Shown here piece after piece: positions 53,146-56,030 of a stretch of 64,000 nt of DNA. Numbering within the stretch: the first letter of the stretch is position 1; each line of letters begins with the position of its first letter. This DNA comes from Myxococcales bacterium. GTDB lineage: Bacteria > Myxococcota_A > Polyangia > Polyangiales > DASUME01. Below the pieces are notes generated by a model, which was given only the letters and a program-made list of their open reading frames with translations, ran no database searches and was not told where the DNA came from. The translations under genes were made by a program, and so were the position numbers. Location of the stretch: NCBI GenBank assembly GCA_047601445.1, contig JASGJH010000001.1:4800001-4864000 (forward strand), in the 5' to 3' direction.

Positions 53146-53442
53146 ATGTTCGTGATCGAGCTGATCTACAAGGCCGAGCTCACGCAGATCGACGCCGCGA
53201 TGAAGGAGCACATGGCCTTCCTCAAGCGCGGCTACGCGGCCGGCGTGTTCGTGCTCTCGGGCCGCAAGATCCCGCGCGATGGGGGCATCCTGTTGGCGGT
53301 GGGCAACGACCGCGAGAAGGTCGAGCAGCTGATGGCGCTCGACCCCTTCGTAGCCAAGGGCCTCGCCGACGTACACATCATCCAGTTCCGAGCCAGCCAG
53401 CGGGCCGAGAACGTGGACGAGGTCTTGAAGCAGGAGCCCTAG
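53146..53442 (+). CDS. YciI family protein
   Basis: GGAGG RBS; EHMAFL...SGRKIPRDGG...DPFV; stop TAG coincides with the left element junction. Confidence 0.85.
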   Translation: MFVIELIYKAELTQIDAAMKEHMAFLKRGYAAGVFVLSGRKIPRDGGILLAVGNDREKVEQLMALDPFVAKGLADVHIIQFRASQRAENVDEVLKQEP

Positions 53443-53631
53443 AACGCATCTGATCACCTCTGCGGTTGGTCTCGTTGTCCGAGGCACGCGTAGGACATCC
53501 GTCCGACTACCGGCAAAGGGATTCTACTGCAAGCTTTGCTGCACGATGCGAGGCCGTACGCCTCGAGGCCAACGACGCGCCACAAACCCCGTTTGGGATC
53601 CTGCGCGCATCTACGGGCGCGGAGGTGGAAT

Positions 53632-55038
53632 ATGAGAATTGCAGTGAGGCTAGGTTCGTTGGCGCTGGCCGTCGTGACTGGGACCGCATCGGTGCACGCG
53701 CAGGCGACGACCGATTGGGACTATCGGGGGCGACTCGCGGTGGCCACGCATGGCGAGCACACGGCGCGCTACTTCTACCAGCACGGTGTCGACCGGGTCC
53801 TCGAGGAGCACGACGGCAGCACGACGTACTACGTCGGCGGCGACTTCGAGGTGCGCGACGGCATCGCTATTGTCTATGCGCGCCTTGGCGAGGGGCGCGT
53901 AGCGCGGCAGAGCCGGAGCGCGCTGCAGCCAGACTTGCTCGAGGACTTCGCACCGAGTGGCCGCATCGATGTGACTGATGCGTGGCTTTCGAGCCGGGCG
54001 CTCGAGCACGCGAGCGGAGCAACGCCCCCGCGGGCGAACGAGCCTGTTCGACACCTCTACGCGAGCGCGCGCCGGCTGCTGCTCGAGCACGTGCCGAGCA
54101 AGGTGTTCTTGCACAACGACCAGCTCGGCAGCCTGACCCTCGCGAGCGACCCCGGCGGACACCTGCTCGGCGAGCTAGCGTTTCAAACCACGGGCGCGGT
54201 GCGGATGAATCGCTCCCACGTGGACCGCTACGGCTTCATGGGGCAACGTCGCGATCCGATTACCGACCTGGTGCACCTGCCGCTTCGCGAGCTCGACGCG
54301 CGGGTCGGCCGCTGGCTGAGCCCTGACCCGCTGTTTCTTACCAGCGCTGAAGCGTGCCTCGCCAAGCCCTTCGAGTGCAGCAACGGATATCAGTACGTGC
54401 TGAACAACCCAGTCGACCATGTCGATCCAACGGGAGCAGCGGACACGCTGCCGTGGGCCTTGTTTGGAGATGGGAGCAGAATAGCGCTCTTTCCTCAAGC
54501 ACCTACCCCACACTCAGCAAATGCAGCACCAGTTACGATACTCGAGGAGCTAACCGAGGACCCGCCTGAGGTGGCATTCTACGGCAATTTCAGGGAGGGT
54601 TATACGGCCTACAGATACAGAGTGAGCCCTGACGATGGGTCCTCTCGCTACACCAGGTATGTGATTTTCGGCATCGGCGCCCAGCCGCTCTTGGCATCTA
54701 GCTGGGAGGAGACCCAAGCGCTCTTTGTGAAACGAGGATACTGGCAACGTCTTTTCTCGTGGTTCTCTTCGAAGCCACGCGCGAACTGGATAGCCAGGTC
54801 GTACAACGGCGTTGGTGAACATAATTGGCAGGAATCCGTGGCTCTTTCCGTCCGGAGCCAACAGAGCGAAGGGCATGGAGCGGCCGAAAACGCTCTTGGA
54901 CGGATTGATCCTTCTCTGGTTGAAGAACGATTTTCAATCTGGGGCGAACAACGCACGGCGGCATACGTGGGGAAAAACGGGGTCGAAAGTTGGAACAAAG
55001 CGCACCCCCAACCCTACACACCACGTGGTCCCCGATAA
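53632..55038 (+). CDS. Mini RHS-core protein with signal peptide and divergent C-terminal (toxin-like) domain
   Basis: GGAGG RBS; MRIAVRLGSLALAVVTGTASVHA-Q; HNDQLGS, YGFMGQRRD, GRWLSPDP, YQYVLNNPVDHVDPTG; lower-GC tip after 54435. Confidence 0.85.
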   Translation: MRIAVRLGSLALAVVTGTASVHAQATTDWDYRGRLAVATHGEHTARYFYQHGVDRVLEEHDGSTTYYVGGDFEVRDGIAIVYARLGEGRVARQSRSALQPDLLEDFAPSGRIDVTDAWLSSRALEHASGATPPRANEPVRHLYASARRLLLEHVPSKVFLHNDQLGSLTLASDPGGHLLGELAFQTTGAVRMNRSHVDRYGFMGQRRDPITDLVHLPLRELDARVGRWLSPDPLFLTSAEACLAKPFECSNGYQYVLNNPVDHVDPTGAADTLPWALFGDGSRIALFPQAPTPHSANAAPVTILEELTEDPPEVAFYGNFREGYTAYRYRVSPDDGSSRYTRYVIFGIGAQPLLASSWEETQALFVKRGYWQRLFSWFSSKPRANWIARSYNGVGEHNWQESVALSVRSQQSEGHGAAENALGRIDPSLVEERFSIWGEQRTAAYVGKNGVESWNKAHPQPYTPRGPR

Positions 55039-55123
55039 AGCTCGAGTTCGACATGGAGTCGCTCGTAGGACGCACGCAGGTCGTCGCGCTCGCTCTCCAG
55101 GCTCGCGATGCGCTCGTCCGCTG

Positions 55124-55337
55124 CGAGTTCGGCGTCGAACTCATCGCGCCGAACCGCGCGAAGCGCAGACGAACTCAAGATGGATGCCCGCTCCGCCGCG
55201 ACAAGCGTCGATGGACGATCGAGCGCCTTCGCGTGGCTCATGCGGTACCGCCGCAGCGTCACGCGCTGGGAGCATAAAGCTGAGACTTCCTCGGCTTTCT
55301 CCACCTCGCGTGCCTCGCCATCCTCCTGAAGAGGTGA
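55124..55337 (+). pseudogene. IS5-family transposase, frameshifted 3' remnant
   Basis: GVELIAPNRAKRRRTQDGCPLRRDKRRWTIER / FAWLMRYRRSVTRWEHKAE / FLGFLHLACLAILLKR read across two frameshifts. Confidence 0.85.
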
Positions 55338-55445
55338 TGAGATGCGTTCTAGGCTCCTGTCGCCGCATCGCCCCTGCCCTTGCCGGTCACGTCGCGCTGG
55401 CGGGCGCACCGGGACGGCGCAGGGGACGACGGCGAAAATGCTTGC

Positions 55446-55889
55446 TCAGCGCGTGAAGTGCTTGGCGCGCTGCTGAATCTCGCGGGCCACGCCGCGGTCC
55501 TTGGACGTCACTTCCACAAGGAAGTTGCCGCCCTCGACGCGCACGCGGAACTCCGCGCCCTTCACGCACAGCGGCGAAGTCTGGTCCTGCGTCAGCTTCG
55601 AGCACTCGGTCAGCGCGTTGTAGAGGTCGGCCTCGGTCACGTGCCTGGGCGCGCGCACGATCAGCGCCACACCGGTCGGAATGTAGGCGAACGGGCGGTC
55701 CTGCTTCCGGGTGAGCTCGCGGGCCTTCAAGATGGTGTAGCCGTCGGCGCCGCCCTGCTGCCCCTGGGCCGCAGCGGCCAAGGCCGAACAGGCCATGCTG
55801 TCCGCGGAAGCGCTGGAGATGCCGACGAAGCTGAGACCCGTGAGAAGTGCAGCTCCGGTGACGAGCCGCACGATACGTTGATGTGCCAT
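55446..55889 (-). CDS. Secreted hypothetical protein
   Basis: GGAGG RBS; signal peptide (SASA-D); three Cys. Confidence 0.6.
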   Translation of the reverse strand: MAHQRIVRLVTGAALLTGLSFVGISSASADSMACSALAAAAQGQQGGADGYTILKARELTRKQDRPFAYIPTGVALIVRAPRHVTEADLYNALTECSKLTQDQTSPLCVKGAEFRVRVEGGNFLVEVTSKDRGVAREIQQRAKHFTR

Positions 55890-56030
55890 GCGTGAATCCT
55901 CCATGGCACTCACTGTGATGTGGCTCGGACAACCTTGGAATGGGGTGAACTACCCAAGTTGACCGGGTCGATGGCCCCAAAACACGAGAAAAACGGGGCC
56001 TCTCGTGCTCTTAAGCCGCTTTCTACGCGC

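Follow-up and report, generated by a model that had tools for sequence, protein, structure and literature searches.

The element at the yciI stop codon

The window analysed here, a stretch of 64,000 nucleotides (nt), is part of the single-contig 9.5-Mb genome of a Myxococcales bacterium (G000; the other G-numbers denote the genomes that were compared with it). Towards its end it carries an element of 1908 bp with the ends of an IS5-family insertion sequence (IS), and inside this element stands a gene for a short RHS protein of 468 amino acids (aa). The comparisons described below suggest that this gene encodes one of 27 modules, each a candidate cap with its own cargo, for a separately encoded and truncated container of the TcB-TcC type.

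The element is inserted in the stop codon of an intact yciI-like gene (53146..53442, + strand; PF03795, E 2e-13), which is 77% identical to its orthologue in G007. The yciI stop sits within the left CTAG, and the G007 orthologue ends at about the same codon. The first-pass annotation of the window had described 23-bp inverted repeats (53439-53461 and 55330-55352) and a duplicated CTAG. The repeats are genuine, agreeing at 22 of 23 positions with CTAG at the outer edges, and neither has another site within 4 mismatches anywhere in the 9.5-Mb genome. However, in at least 5 of 21 related insertions TA is kept at both ends and the outer base is variable. Thus the duplication is better read as TA (53440..53441 and 55350..55351), the repeats as 20 bp (53442..53461, +, and 55330..55349, -; 19 of 20 positions matching) and the element as 1908 bp. 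The left repeat belongs to the end family of intact IS copies in G198, G206 and G212.

When the element was excised in silico, the site read CAGGAGCC-CTA-GGCTCCTG and the hairpin was restored as claimed, its 8-bp arms lying at 53431..53438 and 55352..55359 (both +). A perfect stem of at least 8 bp is present at 7 of the 5212 CTAG sites of the genome. Since both the hairpin and the yciI stop are restored, the two flanks appear to be native and to have been contiguous before a single insertion; with TA on both sides, this supports the view that the two ends mark one insertion and not two unrelated decayed IS copies. The palindrome at the insertion point is genuine, but it does not amount to a targeting rule, since not one of the 21 related insertions has a stem of even 5 bp around it. 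No syntenic locus, and hence no empty site, could be found in 30 relatives or nine genus genomes, and yciI and the downstream gene have different neighbours in those examined. The proteins of the relatives are labelled Myxococcota, Polyangiaceae, Sandaracinus and Haliangium. Beyond the right end, a gene for a secreted-looking protein of 155 aa (window 55446-55913, -) is convergent on the element; the genome contains 1 paralogue of it, and 3 of the 9 genus genomes have homologues.

The RHS gene (53632..55038, +; TIGR03696, E 3e-14) is preceded by a two-part motif, likely a promoter or regulator site (53491..53533, +), and by a GGAGG ribosome-binding site (53621..53625, +), while a scan for sigma-70 promoters gave no site. 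Its product starts with a predicted Sec signal peptide of 23 aa ending in V-H-A (53632..53700, +); it was called by visual reading and a hydropathy test. There follow a conserved 240-aa RHS shell end (53716..54435, +), comprising the last repeats and the core with DPxG and a module-specific Cys pair, and a variable tail of 200 aa (54436..55035, +; 56% G+C). The toxin-like nature of the cargo found no support in a family match of the tail, and neither Pfam, Atlas (no usable match) nor a single-sequence fold (pLDDT 33) pointed to a function. No immunity gene is adjacent, the window copy being followed by IS debris.

The interior of the element is a mosaic of the gene's own leader, the RHS gene, an 80-bp IS66 fragment and an IS5 tail. 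The 170 bp from the left repeat to the start codon are module DNA with the motif of the paralogous genes, not IS DNA. A decayed left end of the IS was considered for this leader and rejected, as no significant match to three IS leaders was obtained (p 0.10-0.54); 2 of 9 leader alignments, made against whole elements, gave p values of 0.04 and 0.01. The IS66 fragment (55036-55115, -) represents the start of tnpC, as found in two genus genomes: it is 81% identical over 80 bp to an IS66 element of G004 (E 7e-14) and aligns over 77 bp with one of G002. On one side it shares a few bases with the IS5 remnant, and on the other its first codon is the TAA stop of the RHS open reading frame (ORF). Since its stop is supplied at the IS66 edge, the completeness of the mini-RHS ORF described before is likely rather than established. 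The 1407-bp ORF contains no frameshift, against two in 243 bp of the IS remnant (p ~0.02).

When 300 other genomes of the order were searched by pattern, 14 proved to have the same ends. Intact copies number five (three in G198, the others in G212 and G206); they are 882-891 bp long, have two overlapping ORFs and match the IS5 model NF033580. Window positions 55123-55352 are 79% identical over 233 bp to the 3' end of the intact 884-bp elements and carry one 2-bp and one 1-bp deletion relative to them. This remnant, the 3' end of a transposase gene (55110..55349, +; left edge approximate), matches NF033580 weakly (E 0.003), and its stop codon lies inside the right repeat. Both the IS5-family origin and the decayed transposase end are thus borne out by the intact relatives and the model. 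Within IS5 the ends are probably IS427-like, the group being assigned from the length, the two overlapping ORFs, the NF033580 match and the duplicated TA of the intact relatives.

No intact copy of this IS and no cognate transposase are present in the genome, where the other three IS5 elements have different ends and transposases of at most 32% identity. Ends of the same family occur elsewhere in it as miniatures of 168 bp (G000:C1:8063262-8063429) and 33 bp (3067017-3067049) and as one solo end (9305611-9305625), and nothing more; no convincing partner was found for this solo end at 9.31 Mb. None of 30 order-scan loci (part of the matches in the 14 genomes), 8 genome-collection loci and 1 metagenome locus holds a passenger between such ends; in both collection scans the patterns had to match exactly and the flanks taken were 4 kb. 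Passengers are likewise absent from the other 21 paired elements examined, each of which is an intact IS or a miniature of 43-209 bp, and no second copy of the cassette was detected in the genome or in the collection scans. Searching for the repeats therefore yielded the expected intact IS5 copies in relatives, but no cassette with other cargo and no empty yciI site. The proposal of a non-autonomous cassette, mobilisable in trans, agrees with the lost transposase and the enclosed passenger; with the cognate transposase absent, however, nothing in this genome can mobilise the cassette at present, short of a return of the cognate IS.

Some further IS5 observations may be recorded. In G238 these ends gave 37 matches. 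Within G000, two IS5 elements of 1.4 kb have different ends (G000:C1:6835529-6836932 and 9377943-9379343); each carries an extra ORF behind the transposase, the product of which looks like a four-helix bundle, and they may be transporter IS. An intact 278-aa IS5 transposase gene with different ends is located near the contig end (G000:C1:9489906-9493151); its surroundings gave the impression of reading unlike the rest of the genome, and assembly contamination is listed as 5.4%.

The module family and the truncated shell gene

Besides the window ORF the genome has 26 paralogues: a group of 12 at 2.86-2.88 Mb, another of 13 at 6.86-6.89 Mb, and a single gene at 8.51 Mb. The modules are about 400-480 aa long and consist of a hydrophobic leader, a W-D repeat, about 230 conserved residues up to DPxG, and a tail. 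The frame is open through DPxG in 24 of the 27 modules, three being broken, and the residues D234, D237, P238 and G240 are invariant in all 24. The intact modules form one clade (100/100) with a star-like interior, having diverged to about 60% identity (about 67% in DNA). Their tails of 132-201 aa show no BLAST similarity among the 24 (one is cut short by the locus edge), and neither a Pfam family nor a recognised toxin domain could be assigned to any tail in the 30 proteins examined. Since 25 of the 27 copies stand in two tandem arrays, where no ends of this IS family were detected, transposition can no longer be regarded as the main way by which these RHS tips spread.

No other module is more than 64% identical to the window copy, which groups within the clade of this genome's modules (100/100, though the bootstrap had not fully settled), and a foreign origin of the cargo was rejected on this ground; the copy appears to be an old family member, neither foreign nor a recent duplicate. 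Nor is it the loose RHS tip that had been supposed: a signal peptide is predicted for it, it has a ribosome-binding site and the upstream motif of its own, and the family of 27 to which it belongs is linked to a truncated shell gene.

This shell gene lies in the second array, about 2 Mb from the window copy. It encodes 1623 aa with a leader, SpvB, FG-GAP and TcdB-mid domains and RHS repeats (PF03534, PF13517, PF12256, PF05593), and its frame is intact despite the divergence of the modules. The shell stops six residues past its last match to fused relatives, immediately before the W-D repeat with which all modules open, and the adjacent module begins 151 nt after the shell stop, in another frame and with a new leader. 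In 52 of the 54 best homologues of the shell C-terminal part, the W-D repeat, core and tail are in one chain, mostly of about 2050 aa, and the genus relative G008 is likewise fused. In a scan of the class, with 7 candidates scored per genome, 10 of 400 genomes had a match, and there the region stood in a long frame, one of them cut by a contig end. These comparisons show that a gene which ancestrally encoded about 2050 aa, with a signal peptide, SpvB, an FG-GAP propeller, a YD shell, an RHS core and a tail, is split in this lineage. The fused relatives match TcdB2-TccC3 structures best (E 1e-111, profile search).

Two features distinguish the modules from the fused proteins. A hydrophobic stretch precedes the W-D repeat in 27 of 27 modules; the repeat could be located in 41 fused homologues, and 3 of these have such a stretch. 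The Cys pair of the core is present in 24 of 24 modules and in none of 54 fused homologues. The restriction of the pair to the modules would fit an oxidising compartment. In addition, 12 of the 24 stops examined are followed at 372 nt or less by the start of another module or of the shell, gaps that leave no room for an immunity gene in the arrays.

Other genes of these regions were also noted. Resembling genes stand within both arrays (G000:C1:2869865-2870560 and 6880404-6880979); the second matches the GNAT family and the first does not. P0066, a 1489-aa shell, was considered as a further split shell and rejected: it looks like a broken gene, with full-length members in its cluster and a matching downstream part that has no leader. 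An unsplit SpvB-RHS gene with an Ntox30 tail is located at G000:C1:6274017-6287294, with an IS66 transposase gene within 2.4 kb after it.

The upstream motif ties the window copy to the shell gene. With a matrix trained on 11 array modules and the shell gene, the window site being left out, the latter scores 38.9 bits. At 24 bits or above, 14 sites were obtained in the genome, namely the shell gene (among the two top scores), the 11 array modules, the window copy and a lipoprotein operon, and none in the controls; the motif is thus present in 12 of the 27 modules. The operon (G000:C1:6893204-6901533) encodes a small lipoprotein, a Cys-rich protein of 1883 aa and a protein of 734 aa. In all 7 relatives inspected the 1883-aa gene stands beside an RHS gene, and its product is likely a delivery or anchoring partner. 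A weak Atlas lead connects it with PF18276 (score 0.75, rank 13). A separate Tc-like locus (G000:C1:147725-164800) carries a TcA-type gene (PF18276, E 6e-94) near SpvB-type genes.

Similar modules were recovered outside this genome. A profile search of 1.8 billion representatives, with follow-up, gave nine JGI metagenome proteins of 375-455 aa on contigs of five sizes (2.6-11 kb), three of the sizes having two or three proteins each. These proteins have a short leader ending in A-x-A, their RHS region begins about 11 profile positions later, and they form a clade separate from the modules of this genome; they were not found in 138 genomes of the family of G698. In P0225, P0279 and P0293, which also bear leaders, the RHS region starts still later, and these may be further independent splits.

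Proposed assembly and rival explanations

In this lineage the last 230 aa and the tail of the ancestral protein acquired their own start codon and a hydrophobic leader, together with the upstream motif of the shell gene in 12 of the 27 cases, and the module was amplified 27-fold with unrelated tails. We propose that shell and modules would be co-transcribed under one regulator, would cross the inner membrane by Sec and would assemble in trans, the module closing the shell around its own tail; by analogy with Tc and Rhs proteins, the core would then cut the tail free after DPxG. The core aspartates have a role in self-cleavage in Tc and Rhs proteins. Since such a module would require just a promoter and the shell in trans, a copy could function anywhere in the genome. 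A transposase acting in trans likely brought the window copy, between its IS5 ends, to the yciI stop from a donor site that would also have held IS66 debris.

A split container with swappable cap-plus-cargo modules is, in our judgement, the probable explanation of the arrays and the shell gene, and we incline to the view that the cassette moved together with its cargo. For the joint reading, in which the cassette encloses one of 27 caps for a separately encoded, truncated TcB-TcC-like container, we estimate a probability of about 0.55. In wider terms, it seems on balance that a split RHS/Tc-BC container with co-regulated secreted caps arose at least twice in Myxococcota-type bacteria, at different split points, so that payloads could diversify without recombination and units could be moved by IS.

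Several points weigh against this reading. The architecture is known from one assembly and from unassembled metagenome proteins, and the second lineage presents itself as module proteins alone, with no shell gene in view. Expression, secretion, assembly and toxicity are all predictions from sequence. Modelled alone, the module reached low confidence (pLDDT 45) and had no Foldseek match at E <=0.001. The median dN/dS of the window copy against 23 paralogues, 0.27, speaks for selection on the gene but spans the whole history and not just the time after capture, and synonymous sites are near saturation (pS 0.60). Fifteen of the 26 other modules, including the one beside the shell gene, are without a strong motif, and as the seed sites were picked by their likeness to the window copy, its held-out score is not fully independent. 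A TcA-like nature of the 1883-aa neighbour found no support, there being no match in Pfam, in PDB or to the TcA of its own genome. Finally, both IS indels fall in short repeats and could be assembly errors, and neither an empty site nor a second cassette copy nor a cognate transposase came to light in the genome, the relatives and the collections.

The alternative that survives best concerns the order of events. An IS5 element could have been inserted at yciI first, and the module and the IS66 piece could have entered it later by illegitimate recombination, in which case the IS never transposed with cargo. The single copy and the three internal junctions, none of them at an IS66 end, would be explained in this way, as would the freedom from passengers of 21 of 21 other paired elements and the lack of any cargo element in two collection scans. 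On the other hand, a 1.6-kb piece with an intact promoter would have had to land precisely in a 0.9-kb IS, and this genome has no IS66 from which the fragment could have come, as would fit a cassette that was put together elsewhere and arrived whole. We consider such a later capture possible but doubtful.

It is unlikely that the modules are stand-alone secreted proteins whose tails are released without a shell, the shell having another role or being a relic. The three broken modules speak for it, as do the marine proteins P0279 and P0293, which have a leader on a still shorter core; however, the shell gene shares the motif, with one of the two top scores, and keeps its 1623-aa frame, its break point is complementary to the module start to the residue, and the shell-end repeats are kept in the modules under purifying selection. 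Similarly improbable is a window copy truncated by the IS66 junction and dead, irrespective of the arrays. Its stop is indeed the first codon of the IS66 match, and its tail has no homologue by which the length could be checked, but at 200 aa this tail is at the top of the family range of 132-201 aa, and the copy has kept its motif, ribosome-binding site, leader and frame intact next to an IS remnant with frameshifts.

The repeats might also be the outer ends of two inverted IS copies, that is, of a composite transposon since decayed, under which the cargo would still have moved as a unit. The two ends agree over 20 bp, and an 11-mer is common to both just inside them (p ~0.001, tested post hoc). 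Yet in single elements of this family the left and right ends usually agree over 19-25 bp, the 11-mer abuts the leader motif of the module, before which array copies have similar bases, and the left side has no further right-end sequence, so that we regard a composite origin as rather improbable. Least of all do we expect the modules to be silent orphan cassettes that become active only after recombining onto a main gene, as in enterobacterial rhs loci: the variable tails and the tandem arrays next to the main gene recall that mechanism, which is established for Salmonella (PMC3967940), but the known orphans usually have immunity partners and no start or export signals, while here leaders are present in 27 of 27 modules, 12 of 24 stops lie too close to the next start for an immunity gene, the shell gene has no module sequence to recombine with, and the copies are just about 67% identical in DNA.

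Significance and comparison with known systems

The known ways of changing an RHS payload are recombination and, in Tc toxins, the exchange of a 900-aa half-shell. If the joint reading is true, a 230-residue exportable cap that completes a common shell would add a third route, taken 27 times in this one genome, and one bacterium could load many payloads into one container. The long-open question of how an RHS shell closes around its cargo, including after separate export of its parts, becomes testable here. Short "RHS core" genes, often dismissed as fragments, could then be full expressed subunits. The family also offers 24 unrelated tails, their activity not assigned to any family, from a myxobacterium-like predator. 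The literature searched, from which most subscription papers fell outside, contained no account of signal-peptide-bearing RHS end modules completing a truncated shell, so that this split variant of the RHS/Tc container is apparently new; the locus supplements of PMC3482391 and PMC7861908 could bear on this novelty.

The IS-bounded cassette by itself is an element of known kind. It resembles mobile insertion cassettes and transporter IS (PMC4133298, PMC9330008) in its IS-derived ends, its target duplication, the absence of its own transposase and a passenger with its own expression signals, here predicted ones. It differs from mobile insertion cassettes in being a single copy with no cognate transposase in the genome, in the IS66 piece inside, and in a passenger that is a paralogue of a host family. 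With the IS427 group, for which TA duplication has been reported in ISPsp10 (PMC4133298), it shares the duplicated TA and intact relatives of 882-891 bp with two overlapping ORFs, although here just the last 240 bp and the left repeat survive.

The core ending in DPxG and the variable tail are those of RHS polymorphic toxins, from which the system departs by its YD shell on a separate gene and the lack of an adjacent immunity gene. Polymorphic toxins of the "TcdB/TcaC pathway" (PMC3482391) have the signal peptide, SpvB, integrin-like propeller and RHS region of the ancestral gene and shell, but they are described as single chains, whereas here the C-terminal modules are split off and, by prediction, separately exportable. 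Orphan rhs-CT/rhsI loci (PMC3150448, PMC3967940) likewise have RHS core ends and variable tails arrayed close to a main gene; they are usually devoid of start and export signals, depend on recombination and possess immunity genes, unlike the modules here with their predicted leaders.

The closest likeness is to Tc toxins. The shell contains TcB-like SpvB, propeller and TcdB-mid domains. Immunity genes are not apparent here, and Tc loci have none either; the latter are thought to target eukaryotes (PMC7861908), and by the same analogy a non-kin target is plausible here. The TcC proteins are 850-1050 aa long, with about 680 conserved residues (PMC7861908), while the present modules of about 400-480 aa keep about 230. 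Here, all YD repeats before the split stay on the shell, each part has a predicted signal peptide, the cargo subunits number 27, and no TcA was identified beside the shell gene. As in the Tc B-C container formed by YenB with YenC1, YenC2 or YenC3 (PMC11067744, PMC7861908), one container part would serve several cargo subunits encoded at distant loci. The nearest precedent is the assembly of the orphan TcC YenC3 with the distant TcB YenB in Yersinia entomophaga (PMC11067744).

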